NCBI GenBank assembly: GCA_001784435.1
Contig: MFQZ01000001.1
Span: 156,205 to 220,204, forward strand
From: Candidatus Magasanikbacteria bacterium RIFOXYC2_FULL_42_28
Lineage (GTDB): Bacteria > Patescibacteriota > Patescibacteriia > Magasanikbacterales > GWA2-37-8
Length of the DNA stretch: 64,000 bases
Direction of reading: 5' to 3'
Shown here: in pieces, positions 2,532 through 60,897 of the stretch
Layout of the letters: every line of letters starts with the position of its first letter
Position numbering within the stretch: position 1 is the stretch's first letter
Made by a program: the position numbers and the translations under genes
The notes under the pieces: model-generated
What the model was told of the DNA's origin: nothing
The model's input: only the letters and a program-made list of their open reading frames with translations
Databases searched by the model: none

Positions 2532-2640
2532 TTCAAAATCCAAATTTCCAATTTCCAATCAAATCCAAAATCCCAATATCAAATTTGACATTTTGGCTTT
2601 GACATTGATTTGACATTGGATATTGGAAATTTGACATTTT
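2532..2640. repeat. family A palindromic intergenic element (TTGACAT / GGAAATTGGAAAT units)
   Basis: ccaaatttccaatttccaat...tttgacattggatattggaaatttgacat; inverted arms; four TTGACAT copies. Confidence 0.7.
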
Positions 2641-2644
2641 ACAT

Positions 2645-3550
2645 TCACACTATCATCGCTAACCCCAAACCAATCAACACAATCGCCCCCACCTCTTGGA
2701 TAATCTCAGATTTACTATATTCTTCTTTAAACAATTTCGGCCAAAAACGCGATAACAAAAATACCAAAATAATTAAGAGCGCGTATTGCACCCCGGCCAA
2801 AGCGTTGATAACAGTAACACTGCCCAGCGCGATGGCGTATTGGACCAACACCACGCCCACAATCGCCAAAATTTTATTAATGACAATAATTGGTAAACTA
2901 CGGGCGGGTATTTTTGTTTTCTTGGTTGGTGGCGTGCGTTTAAATAAATTTCGCCTTAAAACCGGCGACACCAAGAGCATCGCCCCAAATACCCCCATTA
3001 TCCCCCGCGTCCAAATAAAACCGGTCCAGAAATCATAACTGTTATACAAATACTTGGCTGACACGTGCGACACGGCAAACAGCGCGGCCGCGACTAGCCC
3101 CCAAAGCATCGCCGAGTTTAATTCGTAATGATTTTTTTTGTATTCAAACGCCACGGCCAAAGTCCCGACCGATAACAAAAACACACCAAAAAGTTGCGAG
3201 TTGGTTAAATATTCCGCCAAAAATAAAGAACTGAAAATTAAAACAAATAACGGAATTGATCCGCCCACCAGTGGCCCGATATGGCTCACTTCGCTTTTCA
3301 AAAACCCCCGATACATCGCCCATAAAGCCAAAGTAAATGAAACGCCGGAAACCGTGGCCACAAAAAAATCTTTGCCAAAATCAAACGGTTGGCCATAAAA
3401 CGGCAGTAAAAAAAATACGACCAAAACCGGAAAAGCGGAATAAAAAACAAAGGCAATCGGCCGAACTTTTTCCGATGTTAAAATATACTTATCGGAAATG
3501 GCGACAATGGCCAAGAAAAAATAACCGAGTAAGGCGATGGGGAGAAACAT
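2645..3550 (-). CDS. DMT-superfamily (EamA-like) permease
   Basis: 10-TM hydrophobic profile with two EamA-like halves; start moved to MFLPIALLGYFF because the upstream MTLEIGNLTFF in the track is a translation of the family A repeat. Confidence 0.6.
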   Translation of the reverse strand: MFLPIALLGYFFLAIVAISDKYILTSEKVRPIAFVFYSAFPVLVVFFLLPFYGQPFDFGKDFFVATVSGVSFTLALWAMYRGFLKSEVSHIGPLVGGSIPLFVLIFSSLFLAEYLTNSQLFGVFLLSVGTLAVAFEYKKNHYELNSAMLWGLVAAALFAVSHVSAKYLYNSYDFWTGFIWTRGIMGVFGAMLLVSPVLRRNLFKRTPPTKKTKIPARSLPIIVINKILAIVGVVLVQYAIALGSVTVINALAGVQYALLIILVFLLSRFWPKLFKEEYSKSEIIQEVGAIVLIGLGLAMIV

Positions 3551-3554
3551 AAAA

Positions 3555-3672
3555 AATGTCAAATTTCCAATTTCCAATGTCAAACAAAATCCAAAATCCC
3601 AATATCAAATTTGAAATTTTGGCTTTGACATTTGATATTGATTTGAAATTGGAAATTTTGATTTTGAAATTA
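3555..3672. repeat. family A palindromic element abutting start of DMT gene
   Basis: atgtcaaatttccaatttccaatgtcaaa...tttgaaattggaaattttgattttgaaatt. Confidence 0.7.
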
Positions 3673-3710
3673 CCACTATTATTTTACCATATTTTTGACT
3701 TTTAAACAAA

Positions 3711-3739
3711 AAACCATCCCGACTAAGTCGGGATGGTTT
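3711..3739 (-). terminator. intrinsic terminator hairpin aaaccatcccgactaagtcgggatggttt
   Basis: Perfect stem-loop followed by a T-run on the minus strand; the same hairpin type recurs at 6045-6077 and 52765-52798. Confidence 0.6.
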
Positions 3740-4882: not shown

Positions 4883-6046
4883 ATGAAAATCTTAATGATT
4901 GGACAAAAAGGCATACCAGCTCGCTACGGGGGCGTTGAACGCCACGTGGAAGAGTTGTCTTATGAATTGGCCAAACTCGGTCATGAAATTTTTGTATACG
5001 CGCGTTCTTGGTATACTCCCAAAAATATTAAAAATTATCGCGGTATCAATATTATCCATACCCCTTCTATCCACACCAAACATTTGGACGCGATTACTCA
5101 CACTTTAACTTCAACTCTTCACGCTTTGTTTCAAAAACCGGACGTGATTCATTATCATGGCGTGGGTCCGGCGTTATTGTCGTGGATCCCACGCTTGTTT
5201 TTGCCAAACACAAAAGTGGTGGCCACCTTTCATTGTATTGATCGTTACCACCAAAAGTGGAATTTCTTGGCGCGGTTTGCTTTGCGCGTGGGCGAATGGT
5301 TTACTTGCCATATTCCGCACGCGACTATTGCCGTGTCCGAGTCCTTGCGCAATTATTGTCTAAATGAACATCTTTGCCACACCCGTTATATCCCGAACGG
5401 CGCGCGCCCAATCGTGGACAAATCCAGTGAACTTTTAAATCAATTTGGTTTAAAACCGGAAAAATATCTTTTGATGGTGGCGCGTCTTGTCCGTCATAAA
5501 GGAGCGCAGTATTTAATTTCCGCTTGGAAAAATGCCCGCGCGTTAGAGTCAGAACTTTTGGCTGATTACAAATTGGCCATTGTCGGCGACAGTGTCTTCA
5601 CTGATGATTATGTCAAAGAATTACATACGCTGGCCAATAATTATAAAAGCATCATATTCGCCGGTTGGGTGGATGGAAAAAATTTAGAAGCGCTCTTCGC
5701 TAATACCGCTTTACTCGTGCACCCTTCGGAAAACGAAGGCTTGCCTCTCACCGTGCTGTCCGCGATGGCTGCCGGCCGACCGGTGTTGGTCTCGGATATT
5801 GCCGAACATCTGGAATTAATTAAAGATAAAAATTTCTTGTTCGCCAATACCAATATTGATGAATTAACCGAAAGAATAATCGCGCTCATCAAAGCGCCGG
5901 AGCTTCGACGCGAACAGGGCGCCAAAAATGCCGAACGCGCCCAAGCACATTACGACTGGGCCAAAATCGCCCGCCAAACGGAAAATATTTATTTGGCAAA
6001 AAGTCATGCCCTTGCACCCGCAAGAATCTCCACGGCAAGCAAATAA
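4883..6046 (+). CDS. glycosyltransferase family 4 (GT-B fold)
   Basis: C-terminal EX7E-type motif HPSENEGLPLTVLSAMAAGRPVLVSD; N-terminal GT4 core. Confidence 0.8.
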   Translation: MKILMIGQKGIPARYGGVERHVEELSYELAKLGHEIFVYARSWYTPKNIKNYRGINIIHTPSIHTKHLDAITHTLTSTLHALFQKPDVIHYHGVGPALLSWIPRLFLPNTKVVATFHCIDRYHQKWNFLARFALRVGEWFTCHIPHATIAVSESLRNYCLNEHLCHTRYIPNGARPIVDKSSELLNQFGLKPEKYLLMVARLVRHKGAQYLISAWKNARALESELLADYKLAIVGDSVFTDDYVKELHTLANNYKSIIFAGWVDGKNLEALFANTALLVHPSENEGLPLTVLSAMAAGRPVLVSDIAEHLELIKDKNFLFANTNIDELTERIIALIKAPELRREQGAKNAERAQAHYDWAKIARQTENIYLAKSHALAPARISTASK

Positions 6047-6077
6047 AAACCATCCCGACTTAGTCGGGATGGTTTTT
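6045..6077. terminator. bidirectional intrinsic terminator between convergent GT genes
   Basis: aaaaaccatcccgacttagtcgggatggttttt, with an A-run before and a T-run after. Confidence 0.7.
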
Positions 6078-8176: not shown

Positions 8177-9853
8177 ATGGCTAAAATTGAAGCGGAGATT
8201 ATCAAACAGGCAATTCTTTTGCCTAATCTAACTACCGACACGTTTTCTAACCTGAAACGTGATATTTTGCGTAAATTTAAAGCACCTACTAGCCCATCCA
8301 CAGCAGCGCTTCTGAAAGTTTACCACAAATTGACCCGTTTAGGCAAGATTAAGCGATCGGCAATTTTAGAAAAATTACTGGTGCGCCGAGGTGTGAGGAC
8401 TTTGTCGGGCGTGTCTATCGTCACTTCCCTCACTAAACCCTTCCCCTGCCCGGGCAAATGCACCTACTGCCCCAATGATGTCAAAATGCCCAAGAGTTAT
8501 ATTTCCGACGAACCGGCGGCCGCGCGCGCCTTAATGCTCCGCTTTGACCCGTATGACCAAATGGTGCGCCGATTGGAAGCCTTGGCCGATAATGGACACC
8601 CAACTGATAAAATTGAACTCATTATCAAAGGCGGAACTTGGAACTCATACCCGCTTGCTTATCAATATTGGTTTGTCGCCCGCAGTTTTGAAGGCGCCAA
8701 TGAATATTATAGTAAAAAATTAAAAAAGTTTAAAGTTCATAAAGCTGACAGTGAGAATGGTCTAACTGTAAAACAAATTTTAGACAAATTAGCCACTGCC
8801 CAAAAGAAAAATGAAAAAAGCCGTAATCGGATTATTGGCCTGACTTTGGAAACTAGGCCAGATCATGTTACCGAAGCGACAATAAATCAGATGCGTTTGC
8901 AAGGTGCGACGCGCATTGAGCTCGGCGTGCAAACCACCGATGATAAAATTCAAGAACGAACTAAACGCGGGCATAATGCCGAGCAGGCCAAAAACGCGAC
9001 TAAATTACTGCGCCACTATGGTTTTAAAGTGGATTTCCATTTGATGCCCCAACTGCCAGGCTCGACGCCAACGGGTGATTTAAAAATGTTAAAAGAAATT
9101 TTTGCTGACCCGGCATATCGCCCCGATATGGTTAAAATTTATCCCTGCACAGTCGTGGATAACACAGAATTATACGAAGAGGTAAAACGCGGGGAATTTA
9201 AACCCTACTCTGATAAAAAATTAATTGAAATTTTAAAAATTTTTAAAAGCGAAGTTGTCCCATACTATTGCCGGATCTCGCGCCTAATTCGCGATATCCC
9301 CTCTCAACACATTAAAGCCGGCAACACGATGACCAATTTGCGCCAAGTACTTCAAGCCGAATTAAAAGCCGAAGGCAAAAAATGTAAATGCCTACGCTGT
9401 CGCGAAATCGGCCACTCAACAAGTGGCGTGGCTGGTGTTTCCCCCCTCCTGCCCGAGGAGGGGGCGAGGGGGCGGTGGGAGCCAAAATTATTTATAGATA
9501 AATACGCGGCGAGTGGCGGACACGAATATTTTTTAAGTTGGGAAGATAAAAAACGCGAAGTCGTCTATGGCTTCTGTCGCTTACGTGTGGACAAAAACGG
9601 CATCTATCCTGCCTTTATTCGCGAATTGCATGTGTACGGCCAAATGGTAGAAGTAGGTGGACATGAAAAAAGCGCCAGCCAACATTTTGGCTTAGGAAAA
9701 AAATTAATGATTGCTGCGGAAAAAATCGCCAAAAAAGATAAGGCCGGCAAAATTGCGGTTATTGCCGGAATTGGTGTTCGGGAGTATTATAGGAAGACAG
9801 GATATGGGTTGGAGAGTACTTATATGGTTAAAACTCTAAATACTAAGTCCTAA
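8177..9853 (+). CDS. elp3: Elp3-type tRNA modification enzyme (radical SAM + GNAT acetyltransferase)
   Basis: Radical-SAM Cys cluster CPGKCTYCP; C-terminal GNAT Q/R-x-x-G-x-G/A-like segment HFGLGKKLMIAAEKIA. Start moved to MAKIEAEII; the upstream track residues are the family B repeat. Confidence 0.8.
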   Translation: MAKIEAEIIKQAILLPNLTTDTFSNLKRDILRKFKAPTSPSTAALLKVYHKLTRLGKIKRSAILEKLLVRRGVRTLSGVSIVTSLTKPFPCPGKCTYCPNDVKMPKSYISDEPAAARALMLRFDPYDQMVRRLEALADNGHPTDKIELIIKGGTWNSYPLAYQYWFVARSFEGANEYYSKKLKKFKVHKADSENGLTVKQILDKLATAQKKNEKSRNRIIGLTLETRPDHVTEATINQMRLQGATRIELGVQTTDDKIQERTKRGHNAEQAKNATKLLRHYGFKVDFHLMPQLPGSTPTGDLKMLKEIFADPAYRPDMVKIYPCTVVDNTELYEEVKRGEFKPYSDKKLIEILKIFKSEVVPYYCRISRLIRDIPSQHIKAGNTMTNLRQVLQAELKAEGKKCKCLRCREIGHSTSGVAGVSPLLPEEGARGRWEPKLFIDKYAASGGHEYFLSWEDKKREVVYGFCRLRVDKNGIYPAFIRELHVYGQMVEVGGHEKSASQHFGLGKKLMIAAEKIAKKDKAGKIAVIAGIGVREYYRKTGYGLESTYMVKTLNTKS

Positions 9854-9957
9854 ACCCTAAACAAATCCTAATGTTCAAAATCTAAACTATCAATTTTGAA
9901 CATTTGAATTTGAAATTTTGAACTTGTTTAGAATTTAGGGTTTAGTATTTAGAATTT
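9846..9957. repeat. family C palindromic element (arms tctaaa(c/t)tctaaa... / tagaatttagggtttagtatttagaat)
   Basis: cctaaaccctaaacaaatcctaatgttcaaaatctaaac...ttgtttagaatttagggtttagtatttagaattt. Confidence 0.6.
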
Positions 9958-9967
9958 AAATAAAAAT

Positions 9968-10363
9968 ATGTATCTGCCTCCCAATTCCATCATCGCCTCC
10001 GGACCGGTTATAATTGAAAACGGAAAAGTTTTATTAGACCGCGAAAACAAAAACGGAAAAATTACCGACTGGTTTTTCCCGGGTGGCGGAGTTGAGGATT
10101 TTGATATTTCTTTAGAAGAAACTTGCCGACGCGAAGTAAGAGAAGAAATGGGAATTGAAATTGAGATAATTAGACCGCTTGACACTTTATTAACAAAAGA
10201 AGACGGGCACACTGCTATTTTAGTCCATTATTTAGCCAAGCGAATTGGTGAGATAAAACCCGGGGCTGACATCGCCGACTGGGCTTGGCATGATATAAAA
10301 AATTTACCAGATAATTGCGCACCTAATGTATATGAAATAGTAAATAAAATAATCAATATCTAA
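9968..10363 (+). CDS. NUDIX hydrolase
   Basis: Nudix box GGGVEDFDISLEETCRREVREEMGIE. Confidence 0.8.
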   Translation: MYLPPNSIIASGPVIIENGKVLLDRENKNGKITDWFFPGGGVEDFDISLEETCRREVREEMGIEIEIIRPLDTLLTKEDGHTAILVHYLAKRIGEIKPGADIADWAWHDIKNLPDNCAPNVYEIVNKIINI

Positions 10364-14026: not shown

Positions 14027-14080
14027 GAAATATTGGACATTTTTTTGGAAATTGGAAATTGGAAATTTGACATTATCAAA
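14027..14080. repeat. partial family A element between convergent helicase and pyk
   Basis: ggacatttttttggaaattggaaattggaaatttgacatt. Confidence 0.5.
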
Positions 14081-16504: not shown

Positions 16505-16612
16505 TTAATGTCAAATTTCCAATGTCAAATGTCAAATCAAATCCAAAACCAAAATATCAAATAACGATTGTGGTGAATTGGAAATTGGAAATTTGGATTT
16601 TGACATTATCAC
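16505..16612. repeat. family A palindromic element immediately after ftsZ stop
   Basis: atgtcaaatttccaatgtcaaatgtcaaatcaaatccaaaacc...ggaaattggaaatttggattttgacatt. Confidence 0.7.
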
Positions 16613-16613
16613 T

Positions 16614-17834
16614 CTATATTCCCATTTTCTTCCGAATAAACGCCGGGATTTCCAAATCATCATCGGCCTTAGAGGCGGCCGTAACCACATCGTGGCGCTT
16701 GGCCAAATCGTGCGCCGGCGTATCCGTGTCAGTGATATTTTTTTGAGTGAACTGTTTGAATTTTTTTTCTTCTTCGGCCTCTTCTTTTTGAGTGCGACGC
16801 AAGAAATTGCTGGGCGCGTATTTAGCCGCGGAAAAAAACGAGGTCGCATTTTCTTCGGCTGTCAAAACCGGTGTTGGACGATGGCTATCAAAACCGGTGG
16901 CGATTACGTTAATGCGTAAATTATCTTCCATACTTTCGTCTACTGCCATACCCCAGATAACCTTGGCATCATCGGCCGCGCTACTCGTAATAATTTTGGC
17001 CGCCTCATCCACTTCGCTCATAGTAATACCGGAGCTACCGGTAATAGTGAATAAAATACCATGCGCGCCGTCAATGGACAATTCCAAAAGCGGACTGGAG
17101 ATCGCCGCTTGGGCCGCGGTTACGGCGCGATTTTCGCCTTTACCCATACCAATACCCATTAAAGCCGAACCGGTATTGCGCATAATCGTGCGCACGTCCG
17201 CGAAATCAACATTGACCATGCCTGGGACGGTAATTAATTCGGAAATACCTTGAACGCCCTGGCGCAAAATATCATCAATAGTTTGAAAGGCCGTCAGCAA
17301 AGAGGTTTTTTTGTCAATCACCTGCAAGACGCGATCGTTCGGGATGGTAATAATGGTATCCACATTGCGCGCCAATTCTTCCCAAGCATTTTCGGCAATA
17401 TCACGTCGTTGCGGACCTTCAAATGAAAACGGTTTGGTGACAACCGCGACCGTGAGCGCCCCCAAATCGCGCGCCACTTCCGCCACGACCGGAGACGCGC
17501 CTGAACCGGTGCCACCACCCAAACCACAAGTAATAAAAACCATGTCAGTATCTTTTAACAAATCGCGAATTTCATTTTGTGATTCTTCGGCCGCCTTACG
17601 CCCCACTTCCGGATCCATCCCCGCGCCGAGCCCGCGCGTAATCCCTTTGCCAATATGTAATTTATTGGGCGCGCTACTATGATGTAAGGCCTGAACATCG
17701 GTATTCATCACCACAAACTCCACGCCCCGAATTTTAGCGGAAAGCATGCGATTGACAGCCGCGCCACCCGAACCGCCGATACCAACTACTTTAATTTTGG
17801 CAAATGTTTCCATTTCCGGTTTTACTTGAGGCAT
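16614..17834 (-). CDS. ftsZ: cell division GTPase FtsZ
   Basis: Tubulin signature GGGTGSGASPVVA. Confidence 0.95.
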   Translation of the reverse strand: MPQVKPEMETFAKIKVVGIGGSGGAAVNRMLSAKIRGVEFVVMNTDVQALHHSSAPNKLHIGKGITRGLGAGMDPEVGRKAAEESQNEIRDLLKDTDMVFITCGLGGGTGSGASPVVAEVARDLGALTVAVVTKPFSFEGPQRRDIAENAWEELARNVDTIITIPNDRVLQVIDKKTSLLTAFQTIDDILRQGVQGISELITVPGMVNVDFADVRTIMRNTGSALMGIGMGKGENRAVTAAQAAISSPLLELSIDGAHGILFTITGSSGITMSEVDEAAKIITSSAADDAKVIWGMAVDESMEDNLRINVIATGFDSHRPTPVLTAEENATSFFSAAKYAPSNFLRRTQKEEAEEEKKFKQFTQKNITDTDTPAHDLAKRHDVVTAASKADDDLEIPAFIRKKMGI

Positions 17835-39057: not shown

Positions 39058-40657
<1,600 letters not shown>

Positions 40658-41677: not shown

Positions 41678-42373
41678 TCATTTTTTTCGCCACTCCGCTA
41701 TTTTTTTATGGTCGCCAGACAGCAGCACTTTTGGTACTTTTAATCCTAAAAAATTATCCGGGCGAGTATAAAGAATTTCAGATTTTTGAAATTTTGATTT
41801 TGGATTTGATTTGACATTGGAAATTGGAAATTTGTCATTAAACGTCTCATTACTTAACGACTCCTGATTCCCCAACACCCCCGGTATTAATCGGGAAGTC
41901 GCCTCCACCACTGCCAACGCTGGCAATTCCCCACCTGATAAAACATAATCCCCGACTGAAACTTTTTCATCTACAAATTTATACACACGCTCGTCAAATC
42001 CTTGGTAGCGCCCGGAAATTAAAATTAGACGGTCTAGTTTAGAAAATTTCTTGGCCATGGTTTGGTCGAATTTTTTTCCTGCAGGATCTAGTGCGATAAT
42101 TTTCAATTTACAATTTTCAATTTTCAATTTCTTGCCACCACGCGCTAACCCCAAACTCTCCAAACAATAATAAATTGGATCCACTTTCAAAACCATTCCT
42201 GCTCCCCCGCCATATTGCGTGTCATCCACCGGCTGGTGTTTTCCAACCGCAAACTCGCGCCAATTATGAGCGATGATTTTTATTAAATTTTTCTTTTGGG
42301 CGATGCCTAAGATACTATCATTGGAGTAGTGATAGATTAGGTCGGGGAAAATTGTAAGGATATCAAATTGCAT
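41678..42373 (-). CDS. trmD: tRNA (guanine37-N1)-methyltransferase
   Basis: ...LISGRYQGFDERV..., SVGDYVLSGGELPALAVVEA. Start moved to MQFDILTIFP; MEIGYLDFEI in the track is repeat A. Confidence 0.9.
   Translation of the reverse strand: MQFDILTIFPDLIYHYSNDSILGIAQKKNLIKIIAHNWREFAVGKHQPVDDTQYGGGAGMVLKVDPIYYCLESLGLARGGKKLKIENCKLKIIALDPAGKKFDQTMAKKFSKLDRLILISGRYQGFDERVYKFVDEKVSVGDYVLSGGELPALAVVEATSRLIPGVLGNQESLSNETFNDKFPISNVKSNPKSKFQKSEILYTRPDNFLGLKVPKVLLSGDHKKIAEWRKK
41778..41840. repeat. family A element (partial) downstream of trmD
   Basis: tttgaaattttgattttggatttgatttgacattggaaattggaaatttgtcatt. Confidence 0.55.
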
Positions 42374-42394
42374 AATCGCACGAACAAAATTTTT

Positions 42395-42512
42395 AATTTC
42401 AAAATCCAAATATCCAATTTCCAATCAAATCCAAATTTCAGATGTTAAATGTCAAATTTGATATTTTTATTTTGACATTGATTTGACATTGGAAATTGGA
42501 AATTTGACATTA
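42395..42512. repeat. family A element abutting trmD start
   Basis: aatccaaatatccaatttccaatcaaatccaaatttcag...ttttgacattgatttgacattggaaattggaaatttgacatt. Confidence 0.7.
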
Positions 42513-42588
42513 CCAAATATTAATACAAAACCACTCCGCAATAATATATCACGGAGTGGTTTAAATGTCTAATCAGAATATCTGATTA

Positions 42589-43906: not shown

Positions 43907-44047
43907 TGTCATTCCCTACTAGATCCCGGCTTTCGCTGGGACGAATCCAGTCGCAATTTGTCATTTTGATTTTGAAATTTGAATTTGATTTGAAATTGGA
44001 AATTTGACATTCGTAAAGGGATTCCTCCACTGCGGTCGGAATGACAA
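43907..44047. repeat. family B element carrying a nested family A element (43958-44015)
   Basis: tttgtcattccctactagatcccggctttcgctgggacgaatccagtcgcaa[tttgtcattttgattttgaaatttgaatttgatttgaaattggaaatttgacatt]cgtaaagggattcctccactgcggtcggaatgacaaa. Confidence 0.6.
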
Positions 44048-47141: not shown

Positions 47142-47215
47142 ATGTCATTGCGAGCGAAGCGAAGCAATCTCTACGTCAATAATTATATCACAATTTAAAA
47201 ACTCAATCAAATAAA
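47141..47215 (-). promoter_or_regulatory. SMC promoter (TTGATT-17-TATAAT with ttgtg extended -10) plus family B leader abutting the ATG
   Basis: Minus strand: ttgattgagtttttaaattgtgatataattattgacgtagagattgcttcgcttcgctcgcaatgacatATG. Confidence 0.5.
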
Positions 47216-50564: not shown

Positions 50565-50682
50565 AAATTTTACGTTAAAAAAAATAAATGAATTATATTT
50601 TTTACCCTGATATTATACCACCAAATATCTACCAAGGGAATAGCCGATTATAAAGTAAACCTGCGATAATGTCAAGATGCTT

Positions 50683-50711
50683 GACAACCGCCGACAATAG
50701 GTATATAATCA
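50683..50711 (+). promoter_or_regulatory. sigma70 promoter TTGACA-17-TATAAT for nrnA-like gene (about 130-nt AT-rich leader)
   Basis: cttgacaaccgccgacaataggtatataat. Confidence 0.55.
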
Positions 50712-50842
50712 CCTGTTATATAAATATCAAAATGAAAATATCAAAAATCAAAATTTTAGTGTCGCTTCGCGACCGATTACACTAATTTTACATTTTACAC
50801 TGTCATTTTCCATTTTGATTTTTACATTTTAAATTCACTACC

Positions 50843-51799
50843 GTGCAAACAATCGCCAAACAAATATACAGCCGGCTCCTGTCGGCCAATAAAATCCTCA
50901 TCGTCTCGCACCAAAATCCGGACGGCGATACTTTGGGCGCGGGCACCGGACTTTTGGAAACTTTAAAAAACGCGGGCAAATCGGCGCGCCTTTTTTGCGC
51001 CACGCCCGCGCCGGCCAAATTTAATTATCTTCCCCATCACGACACTATCACTTCCGACCCGAGTGTATTTACCGACACAGACGTGGATACGGTCGTTGTG
51101 CTGGACTCCGGCGACTTGCGCTATGCCGGCGTGCATCATCATTTATATAACCACCGCGCTGAAATTATCAATATTGACCACCACCCGACCAACGAAAACT
51201 ACGGCGCGTATAATTTAGTGCGCACGGACTATTCATCCACTTCGGAAATTATTTTCCATTTTTTGCGTTTCAATGGCGCGCGCTTAAATCATTTATCCGC
51301 CACCGCCCTACTCACTGGCATTATCACCGACACCGATAATTTCACCAACGCCGCAACCAGTGCCCGCGCTATGGCCGTTGCTTCGGAATTAATCGCCACC
51401 GGCGCCAATTTAAATTTAATTAACGCCCGCACAGTCCAAAACAAAACCGTCGGCAGTTTGCGTTTGTGGGGATTGGTGTTGTCACGCTTGGTCAAACACT
51501 CCGATGACCTGGCCTCTACTTATGTCAAGAATGAAGATTGGAAAAATCACGATGTGCCCGAAAGTGAAGCCGAAGGCATTGCGAATTTTTTAAATAATTT
51601 AGACAGCGCCAAGGCCGCCTTAATTTTAAAAGAAACCCCCGACGGCAAAATCAAAGGCAGTTTTCGCACCACCCGCGATGATACCGATGTGGCGGCGATG
51701 GCCAAACGTTTGGGTGGTGGTGGGCATAAAAAAGCGGCGGGGTTTACAGTAGAGGGGACGGTTGAGAGTGTGTTAGCGCGAATTTTGACAAATACATAA
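50843..51799 (+). CDS. nrnA: DHH/DHHA1 phosphoesterase (NrnA-like oligoribonuclease / pAp phosphatase)
   Basis: HQNPDGDTLGAG, DHH at INIDHHPTN, GGGHKKAAGF; GTG start. Confidence 0.8.
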   Translation: MQTIAKQIYSRLLSANKILIVSHQNPDGDTLGAGTGLLETLKNAGKSARLFCATPAPAKFNYLPHHDTITSDPSVFTDTDVDTVVVLDSGDLRYAGVHHHLYNHRAEIINIDHHPTNENYGAYNLVRTDYSSTSEIIFHFLRFNGARLNHLSATALLTGIITDTDNFTNAATSARAMAVASELIATGANLNLINARTVQNKTVGSLRLWGLVLSRLVKHSDDLASTYVKNEDWKNHDVPESEAEGIANFLNNLDSAKAALILKETPDGKIKGSFRTTRDDTDVAAMAKRLGGGGHKKAAGFTVEGTVESVLARILTNT

Positions 51800-51823
51800 A
51801 TAGTTGATAAAATATACTTAATA

Positions 51824-51935
51824 AATGTCAAAATCCAAATTTCCAATTTCCAATCAAATCCTAATATCAAATGTCAAAATTTGAACTTTGGACTTTGAAA
51901 TTGATTTGACATTGGAAATTTGACATTTGAAATTA
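51824..51935. repeat. family A element abutting clpP start
   Basis: atgtcaaaatccaaatttccaatttccaatcaaatcc...ttgatttgacattggaaatttgacatttgaaatt. Confidence 0.7.
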
Positions 51936-52880: not shown

Positions 52881-53180
52881 ATGTAGTTGCTGATAACAGT
52901 GCCGTATTTGAATAAACGGAAGAACTGATAGCAAGAAGTATCCCATTAAATAACATTAACGGCAAGAACTGGATATAGGCGTTTATTCTTTTGAAAAAGA
53001 GCTTAAACGCCCGTATCCACGACAAGCATGGGGATGTGTTGGCGGATAGTACAGGCGCAAGCTCGTCTTCTCCATTAACACATCTTCTTGGATGCGGACT
53101 ATTCCCACTGACTTTGTCGGCGGGAGCAAAAAAAACACCACGAACCCAATCAGGTTCGTGGTTTTATATTATTTTTTTAA
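52881..53180 (+). ncRNA. candidate about 300-nt structured non-coding RNA of unknown class
   Basis: TTGACA-17-TATACT promoter at 52847-52875; intrinsic terminator ccacgaacccaatcaggttcgtgg plus a T-run at about 53140-53180; extensive internal complementarity; no credible ORF. Confidence 0.4.
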
Positions 53181-53300
53181 ACACTAAATACTAAACCCTA
53201 AATTCTAAACAAATTCAAAATCCAAATGTCCAAAAGTAATTGATTTGAATTTTTAAAATTTGAATTTGTTTAGAATTTAGTATTTAGAGTTTAGAATTTT
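53181..53300. repeat. family C palindromic element
   Basis: aaacactaaatactaaaccctaaattctaaac...gtttagaatttagtatttagagtttagaatttt. Confidence 0.6.
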
Positions 53301-60773: not shown

Positions 60774-60813
60774 ATATTTATTGCTTATGCGTTCTTAAAC
60801 TATTGAGTCGTCG

Positions 60814-60897
60814 TGCGCGGGAGAGGACTCGAACCTCCATGCCCTTGCGAGCGTTACCACCTCAAGGTAGTGCGTCTACCAGTTTCGCCACCCGCGC
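60814..60897 (-). tRNA. tRNA-Leu (anticodon GAG), long variable arm
   Basis: Reverse complement gcgcgggtggcgaaactggtagacgcactaccttgaggtggtaacgctcgcaagggcatggaggttcgagtcctctcccgcgca; 7-bp acceptor stem, 3-bp D stem. Confidence 0.8.

Follow-up and report, generated by a model that had tools for sequence, protein, structure and literature searches.

A heptamer-built palindrome dispersed in a Magasanikbacteria genome: a candidate selfish element

A stretch of 64,000 nt from the genome of Candidatus Magasanikbacteria bacterium RIFOXYC2_FULL_42_28 (contig MFQZ01000001.1, positions 156,205 to 220,204; hereafter the window) was found to carry eight copies of family A, an imperfect palindrome built of 7-nt units and about 110 bp long when complete. 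Family A is probably a non-autonomous selfish interspersed palindrome, similar in kind to the Rickettsia palindromic elements (RPE) and the miniature inverted-repeat transposable elements (MITE), of Magasanikbacteria-like members of the Candidate Phyla Radiation (CPR, Patescibacteria). The weight of evidence favored this reading, and consisted of the nesting of copies, the presence of half copies, the insertions in frame and in rRNA, the replacement of one element by another at the same site, the equal flanking of gene starts and gene stops, and the absence of covariation between the arms. An earlier note on this DNA, made from the letters alone, had described dispersed palindromic mini-elements; this description was supported, and could be extended to many related metagenomic genomes, to nesting and half copies, and to insertions in protein and 16S rRNA genes.

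Copies, architecture and distribution of family A

The eight copies proposed in the earlier note were all recovered, as five full and three half copies, in an nhmmer search whose profile came from the five full copies of the window. The full copies were re-found by their own profile (E-values of 1e-16 to 1e-29) with best-strand E-values of 2e-29 to 4e-23 (profile bounds 2528-2638, 3555-3673, 16506-16609, 42394-42513, and 51823-51935), and the half copies were matched at 41774-41840, 43945-44013, and 14039-14077 with E-values of 3e-11 to 2e-5. Their positions and surroundings were the following:

A1, 2528-2645: full copy filling the spacer between the stop of a DMT/EamA gene (2645-2647) and the ATG (2517) of a glycosyl-hydrolase-like gene; nhmmer E 2e-29, hairpin z -5.0/-4.7
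A2, 3555-3672: full copy whose end is 4 nt from the start codon of the DMT/EamA gene (3550-3552, minus strand); nhmmer E 9e-28; promoter-like site (3706-3678) just beyond the opposite end
A3, 14027-14080: half copy (one arm) where the PIF1 helicase and pyruvate kinase (PK) genes converge, overlapping the PK stop
A4, 16505-16612: full copy directly 3' of ftsZ (stop at 16614), preceding the promoter and start (16430) of nrdR; nhmmer E 4e-23
A5, 41778-41840, minus strand: half copy read in frame within trmD (coding sequence 41678-42373, minus strand), in the interdomain linker; encodes FPISNVKSNPKSKFQKSE
A6, 42395-42512: full copy between the terminator hairpin of a KH-domain gene and the trmD ATG (42373); nhmmer E 5e-28
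A7, 43958-44015: half copy nested centrally in the family B palindrome 43908-44045, between tRNA-Arg and the SMC stop
A8, 51824-51935: full copy between the stop of a DHH gene (51799) and the clpP ATG (51941); nhmmer E 4e-29

The 17-mer AATTTCCAATTTCCAAT, allowing up to 3 mismatches, occurred at 34 sites in the window against 1.0 expected from shuffles, and the heptamer TTGACAT at 39 sites against 8.9 expected, 22 of which fell in the elements. The earlier note had given all copies inverted arms and three to five TTGACAT; the exact 17-mer was present on a single arm of each full copy, and the count had to be lowered to three or four TTGACAT in the full copies and one in each half copy. The boxes always pointed outward from the center. 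Two more full copies were located in the same genome just outside the window (within 10 kb). Taken together, these copies gave a density of roughly one family A element per 7-8 kb.

Each full copy was composed of units such as AATTTCC, AATGTCA, and AAATCCA, and a self-identity of at least 60% was reached in 456 windows at a lag of 7 nt, compared with no more than 86 at any other lag. The alignment of 35 full copies from many contigs defined heptads of the form AAT..C., in which positions 1-3 and 6 were invariant and positions 4, 5, and 7 variable, and a conserved core that is not periodic, with CAATCAAATCC as its left part and TTGATTTGACATTGG as its right part. The main variation between copies came from the filling of heptad slots with different unit types, not from compensatory point changes. 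No match for family A was obtained in Rfam at the gathering score, and an E-value scan returned only far sub-threshold hairpin look-alikes. The proposal that the family is stop-free in all six frames was discarded, as it held only for the AATTTCC unit. Stops were depleted (13 versus 20 in shuffles), but the full copies averaged only 0.23 open frames of six, because TGACAT brings a TGA.

Four of the five full copies were predicted to fold on both strands as imperfect hairpins of about 45-50 bp (z from -3 to -6), while the copy at 16505-16612 folded like its shuffles (z -1.5 and +0.2) and the half copies gave no fold. When the arms were set in mirror register, 80% of the cells paired, yet 500 of 500 column shuffles equaled or exceeded the observed pairing and covariation. 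In an arm-swap permutation, Watson-Crick complementarity was 78.5% within a copy versus 82.2% between copies (z -3.9). Hence, it is the consensus of the family that is palindromic, and the palindromy does not reflect compensatory evolution. The instability of perfect long palindromes in DNA would account for the weaker pairing of a copy with its own arm. A conserved RNA structure was rejected on these grounds: no consensus structure for the family A copies was returned by RNAalifold, pairing within copies was below expectation, and compensatory covariation was absent.

Additionally, metagenome contigs were scanned for exact occurrences of an 18-mer taken from the right arm, which gave at least 115 loci. 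Among the matches listed, true family A copies were present in 94 of these loci, with a total of at least 127 copies, 72 of them near full length, and 62 of the 63 evaluable full copies were intergenic-like. Sides facing a gene start (60) and sides facing a gene stop (61) were equally represented, about half of the former lying within 22 nt of the start and about 40% of the latter within 8 nt of the stop. These figures indicated that the elements tend to fill whole spacers, with no preference for starts. Spread by phages was rejected, since the 18-mer gave only 2 chance matches in 2.9 million viral contigs. The window itself also matched the ENA metagenome contig ERZ27254748 k141_320711 and identical JGI and Logan contigs; its genes included a giant type IV secretion system (T4SS)-pilin protein and small compact operons.

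The contact of the copies with gene ends was then only partly as the earlier note had put it. An exact junction with a start codon was present at the DMT gene (ttgacattttttATG), the sole case in the window, and not at clpP or trmD; the distance from the element to the ATG was 5 nt for clpP, about 22 nt for trmD, and 10 nt for the gene starting at 2517. The artefactual N-terminal peptides that the note had attributed to the elements do exist, and are used in the public gene calls for DMT (312 aa) and TrmD (248 aa). Copies following a stop or lying between convergent genes were also borne out, at ftsZ (A4) and between PIF1 and PK (A3), respectively.

Insertions in genes, exchange of elements and related palindromes

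Copy A5 had been counted with the dispersed copies in the earlier note, but it is actually part of the trmD coding sequence, where the peptide FPISNVKSNPKSKFQKSE sits between the conserved motifs ESL..ETF and YTRP. The nearest named relatives of this TrmD belong to Candidatus Magasanikbacteria, in keeping with a place of the host within CPR. The related TrmD proteins varied from 213 to 277 aa, and their length differences mapped to two sites, both of which were insertions relative to the solved TrmD of Staphylococcus aureus. By comparison with that protein, the second site lies in the interdomain linker, just past an ED/EE-S/T-F motif; this linker and the acidic residue of the motif each have a role in TrmD. 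Among the relatives, the linker site held nothing (the empty form being ...EETFEND-IVEYPQYTRP), a full family A palindrome in frame, other heptamer palindromes, or GC-rich palindromes. The complete palindrome was in frame in several relatives (for example KFPISNIKSNPKSKGQKSKLEIGNLDFDIS), and the TrmD of the window retained one arm.

The exchange of elements was clearest between two TrmD proteins (P0003 and P0010) that were about 95% identical outside the two indel regions: the linker contained family A in one of the near-identical genes (L121; L numbers denote contigs or loci of other genomes) and a family B element, GTCATCC...GAATGAC, in the other (L245). The presence of different palindromic elements at one site of near-identical genes indicates turnover. 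The spacer upstream of trmD was filled in the window, occupied in L120 by a CTAAT-unit variant altered in both arms, and empty in L121 and L122. Similarly, the spacer between the DHH gene and clpP carried family A in two genomes (those of the window and of L120) and family B in a third (L144).

Several other heptamer palindromes and a heptamer run were found in the window, as well as a promoter-like site next to A8:

9828-9960: family C heptamer palindrome (CTAAACC/CTAAATA), an inverted repeat with lag 7, between radical-SAM and NUDIX genes
39424-39514, minus strand: family C-type heptamer palindrome in the 16S rRNA gene, forming most of a 116-nt insertion
53179-53299: family C heptamer palindrome, an inverted repeat with lag 7, adjoining the stop of a VanW-domain gene (53300)
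50722-50835: further heptamer palindrome (ATTTTAC/ATTTTCC) between a promoter (50681-50709) and the GTG of the DHH gene (50843)
42098-42128, minus strand: heptamer run AATTTTC/AATTTAC in trmD, encoding KLKIENCKLKI, in a region absent from the solved S. aureus TrmD
51785-51813, plus strand: sigma-70-type promoter-like site, TTGACA-17-TAAAAT with TG (11/12), just outside the far end of A8

Family C, which the earlier note had placed at three sites with the same architecture as family A, was thus confirmed at all three (9828-9960, 53179-53299, and 39424-39514). In the 16S rRNA gene (region 39400-39520), the 116-nt insertion took the place of the 4-nt loop at the apex of helix 40. L120 had a LAGLIDADG gene near or within its rRNA region instead.

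The site at 50681-50709, upstream of the 50722-50835 element, was a perfect sigma-70 promoter (TTGACA-17-TATAAT). A strain contig, L243, diverged from the window exactly upstream of 50783, a breakpoint inside the 50722-50835 palindrome at the outer end of its right arm. L243 (560-780) had different genes upstream, its homology to the window starting at 50783. Heptamer elements appear to be breakpoints of gene-cassette rearrangements. In L120 (GCA_030647465.1; region 9090-9996), the KH gene and trmD were separated by an extra gene with a Heavy_Cys_CGP domain. The CTAAT-unit variant was present on either side of this gene in two near-identical copies, the second of which ended with ...TTTGTCATTTTTTATG at trmD, the same junction as that of the DMT gene in the window. 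The possibility that A1 and A2 form a composite transposon around the DMT gene was rejected, because the gene order from the glycosyl hydrolase to DMT was kept in L159 without the elements.

The copy 43958-44015 was nested in a family B element, as the earlier note had claimed. Family B is a GC-rich palindrome, represented in the window by 43908-44045 (GTCATTCC...GGAATGAC). Sites of the type GTCATYCC...GGAATGAC were observed at 43908-44045 and 47142-47170 in the window, upstream of clpP in L144 and in the trmD linker of L245; they occurred in spacers, hosted a family A half copy, adjoined the SMC start codon, and were in frame in the TrmD of a relative. Perfect GC-rich palindromes of only 16-21 nt were nested in family A copies of L159, L202, L126, and L214 (for example TCCGCCAGCCGGCGGA and CCTGCCCGTCCGGCAGGCGGG), and one of 21 nt was present in the trmD-internal family A copies L120:10573-10682 and L122:6363-6469. 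One nested palindrome was in frame in TrmD and was read as NLPVRQAG. These 16-21 nt palindromes look like a separate family of tiny inserted elements. Apart from the palindromes, an 85-nt tRNA-like gene was detected at 60813-60897 (by ARAGORN, without a definite anticodon, "tg"; Rfam tRNA, 47 bits), and may be a tRNA with an insertion or with an unusual anticodon loop.

Furthermore, the unit AATTTCC was not restricted to family A. The sequence (AATTTCC)2AAT occurred in many metagenome-assembled genomes of several CPR lineages and in some other phyla, and (AATTTCC)n was in a long stop-free frame at 65 of 118 loci (L002-L119), many of them from CPR genomes of several lineages. The runs in frame encoded ISNFQFPIS or GNWKLEI, as in L031 and L113 (leucyl-tRNA synthetase), L090 (TrmD), L004, and L008, and the position of the run in leucyl-tRNA synthetase was identical in two Saccharibacteria. 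This suggests that heptamer insertions in coding genes are widespread in CPR.

A selfish origin weighed against functional and other explanations

Copies of family A had accumulated in AT-rich spacers, often occupying the whole stretch between a stop and a start codon, and permissive loops of essential molecules were occasionally hit, namely the TrmD linker, in frame, and the tip of 16S helix 40 in the case of a sister family. Shine-Dalgarno sites are essentially not used by this organism: a Shine-Dalgarno-like 4-mer was found at only 2 of 39 gene starts, although the 3' end of the 16S rRNA retains CCUCC, and the regions upstream of the genes were A/T-rich; an element flush with a start codon would then destroy nothing and so be tolerated. 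With many copies placed either downstream of a promoter and ahead of a start codon or in the gap separating two cistrons, the elements are probably transcribed as long AU-rich hairpins, within the 5' untranslated region (5'UTR) or the intercistronic RNA. These hairpins may incidentally affect mRNA stability or translation, the elements not being built as promoters or terminators. The turnover of sites would be fast relative to protein divergence. Candidate routes of spread are mobilization in trans by an enzyme, or copying between heptamer arrays by template switching or gene conversion. A role as translation enhancer through pairing with 16S rRNA was rejected, as no complement of the heptamer was present in the 16S rRNA. 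A short-period repeat, (TAACTTTA)n, was observed flush with the start codon of the DMT orthologue at L159:8960-9010; it contains TTAACTTTA, the epsilon translational enhancer of phage T7, whose presence in L159 is possibly a coincidence.

Several results weigh against a selfish origin. No target-site duplication was detected around 45 full copies, in which direct repeats of 1, 2, and 3 nt in the flanks numbered 12, 7, and 1, against 10.6, 6.8, and 1.5 in permutations; and neither a transposase nor any other candidate mobilizing gene was present in the Pfam lists of the window and about 30 kb of flanks. No gain or loss of elements was seen among four strain-level assemblies, a comparison that is uninformative since these were 99.94-100% identical; mobility is therefore deduced only from more distant comparisons. 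The polymorphism between close relatives that the earlier note had asked for was found in TrmD genes about 95% identical and not among strains 99.9-100% identical. In addition, the spacers at clpP, after ftsZ, at the PK stop, and at trmD were occupied in relatives with 50-85% protein identity and 89% 16S identity. L120 shared 89% 16S identity and 56-84% protein identity with the window, the L204 copy lay 86 nt past ftsZ, and a full copy of L160 lay 10 nt from the PK stop. Across that distance the copies were still about 80% alike, with strictly conserved heptad positions. This recurrent occupancy of spacers by conserved copies could instead reflect purifying selection acting on a function. Between genomes, copies at corresponding positions were 82% alike, no more than paralogues (76-86%); the clpP copy of L120, for instance, was 82% identical to A8 and 80-84% identical to A1, A2, and A6. 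The lack of an orthology signal excludes simple neutral vertical inheritance. It would be expected if conserved sources had given rise to repeated insertions, if the copies evolved in concert, or if selection drew them toward a consensus.

Selection of the elements as functional sites in cis is, of the other explanations, unlikely but supported by the same observations. The copies would be periodic arrays for a DNA- or RNA-binding protein that recognizes the heptads, or hairpins selected in 5'UTR and intercistronic RNA to tune mRNA stability, RNase III processing or translation. The invariance of heptad positions 1-3 and 6 in 35 copies, the reoccupied spacers of distant relatives (clpP in L120, ftsZ in L204, PK in L160) and the similarity of copies at such a distance are compatible with it. 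So is the different palindrome in the clpP spacer of a third relative, where any hairpin could be selected. The position of the promoters argues in the same direction, since an element can make up the entire 5'UTR: the site at 51785-51813 would place A8 as the 5'UTR of clpP, a TATAAT box precedes the clpP copy of L120, the perfect promoter at 50681-50709 precedes the 50722-50835 element, and promoter-like sites (at least 10/12) were found upstream of 5 of 36 start-adjacent copies versus about 2% in shuffles. Nevertheless, copies are in frame in coding sequence and a sister family is in 16S rRNA, half and nested copies persist, starts and stops are equally flanked, and closely related TrmD genes hold unrelated elements at one site. 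There was no compensatory covariation, pairing within copies was below the shuffled expectation, and the transcribed strand gave the more stable fold in only two of the five full copies, which indicates no strand bias. The invariant heptad positions can also be explained by the swapping of a few unit types, and an array for a transcription factor, which the earlier note had envisaged, fits poorly with the occurrence of half copies and of copies within a coding sequence, and with the occupation of the same sites by unrelated palindromes. A promoter array or a mobile outward promoter, with TTGACAT acting as -35 boxes, is most improbable. TTGACA is indeed the sigma-70 -35 consensus, the boxes point outward on both arms, and several copies are just upstream of starts; yet none of the boxes in the elements has a -10-like hexamer at 16-18 nt, promoter-like sites within the elements were not above shuffles, the terminal box is 4-22 nt from the ATG and hence too near for a -35, half of the flanking sides face gene ends, and the good promoters sit outside the elements.

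Bidirectional intrinsic terminators or dedicated RNA-processing sites, also raised in the earlier note, are very unlikely. The long hairpins predicted on both strands and the copies after stops or between convergent genes (ftsZ, PIF1/PK) would suit such a role, but the stems, imperfect and rich in A and U, do not show the pattern of a terminator. Only one terminator-like call fell inside an element in three scanned regions, a weak one at 3622-3591 in the copy 3555-3672 (12 pairs, 3 of them G-C), and in its region the terminator-like counts were not clearly above shuffles. Canonical terminators with a GC stem and a T-run exist separately in the genome (family D7, for example 3709-3739 and 6045-6075; a clear terminator-like site is at 3740-3710), and termination would be harmful for the copies between promoters and start codons and for the one in coding sequence. 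The chance that the copies are low-complexity AT-rich spacers or similar by accident is practically nil: they are AT-rich and made of simple 7-nt units, but this was refuted by E-values down to 1e-29, motif counts 4-30 times those of shuffles, and a 110-bp architecture with a conserved non-periodic core shared by 94 independent metagenome contigs. Finally, the 7-nt plan itself could be the footprint of a dedicated CPR-wide process, an enzyme or a repair/template-switch pathway, that writes or copies heptamer arrays and inverted duplicates into spacers, loops of essential proteins, and rRNA; this is quite unlikely, though compatible with the existence of families of unrelated sequence and a single architecture (A together with its CTAAT variant, C, and the element at 50722-50835), with the in-frame (AATTTCC)n runs, the swapping of units, and the breakpoints at heptamer arrays, as well as with the fact that neither a target-site duplication nor a transposase was found.

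These elements have practical consequences. They cause systematic annotation errors in CPR genomes, as the public gene calls for DMT and TrmD begin inside an element, and they explain part of the length variation and of the odd low-complexity insertions in CPR proteins and 16S rRNA; in TrmD, an essential tRNA methyltransferase, the insertion sits a few residues past the position aligned with the catalytic residue of the solved enzymes. Small genomes of about 1 Mb, for which streamlining is assumed, would have roughly one such element in every 8 kb. They also offer a natural experiment on which sites tolerate insertion, and on how a bacterium without Shine-Dalgarno sequences copes with a 110-nt hairpin before a start codon. 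Profiles of these families could be put to use as markers of lineages and in the search for breakpoints when CPR genome plasticity is studied. If a dedicated heptamer process exists, many of the insertions that are typical of CPR proteins and rRNA would stem from it, and its arrays would be hotspots of gene-cassette exchange.

Comparison with known repeat families

A full-text search of the literature, incomplete in its coverage, gave no paper linking CPR to MITEs, RPEs or heptanucleotide repeats, or bearing these sequences. The closest behavior is that of the RPEs, reportedly described by Ogata and colleagues in Science in 2000. These palindromes, about 100-150 bp long, are carried by a small reduced genome both in its spacers and RNA genes and in frame at tolerated surface sites of essential proteins; they are not known to have a transposase of their own or a clear target-site duplication, and their positions are often common to related species. 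Family A shows the same trait in the TrmD linker and in its spacer copies, and a sister family shows it in 16S helix 40. However, the host is a CPR bacterium, family A is strictly built of 7-nt units and overwhelmingly intergenic (62 of 63), and different families replace each other at one protein site; hence, the resemblance is functional and does not imply membership.

The 7-nt unit recalls the short tandemly repeated repetitive (STRR) heptanucleotide sequences of heterocystous cyanobacteria, said to have been reported by Mazel and colleagues in 1990, and inside the RNase P RNA gene by Vioque in 1997. Dispersed intergenic arrays and the extension of a helix in a structural RNA gene, comparable to 16S helix 40, are shared features. 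In STRRs, a single GC-richer unit such as CCCCAGT is repeated directly in tandem, whereas family A has inverted arms of mixed units, a non-periodic core, and defined ends about 110 bp apart; simple (AATTTCC)n arrays are nonetheless present in CPR genomes other than this one.

The Correia elements of Neisseria (Correia repeat enclosed elements, CREE, or Neisseria miniature insertion sequences, NEMIS) have 26-bp terminal repeats, a TA target duplication, an integration host factor (IHF) site, and functional outward promoters. Family A resembles these elements and other MITEs in its size range (about 100-150 bp), inverted ends, and many copies near genes; a hairpin RNA co-transcribed with the neighboring genes and able to influence their expression is a trait of those elements as well. 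It differs from the Correia elements in that no target duplication was found and in outward TTGACA boxes that have no -10 partners. As in MITEs in general, which are shorter than about 300 bp and have terminal inverted repeats, a short element of about 110 bp, an inverted repeat over its whole length, is present in multiple copies (8 in 64 kb, and at least 127 in 94 metagenome loci); the target-site duplication of MITEs was not found.

Repetitive extragenic palindromic sequences (REP) and their REPIN arrangements are GC-rich stem-loops of 20-40 bp with a GTAG/CGTC tag, associated with RAYT transposases (PMC3116915; PMC3733652). Family A shares with these their dispersal in spacers as non-autonomous palindromic hairpins, but is about 110 bp long, AT-rich, and heptad-periodic, and has no GTAG/CGTC tag; no RAYT was seen in the window and its flanks. 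While displaying the defining features of none of these groups in full, family A shares its behavior with RPE, STRR, Correia/MITE, and REP/REPIN sequences.

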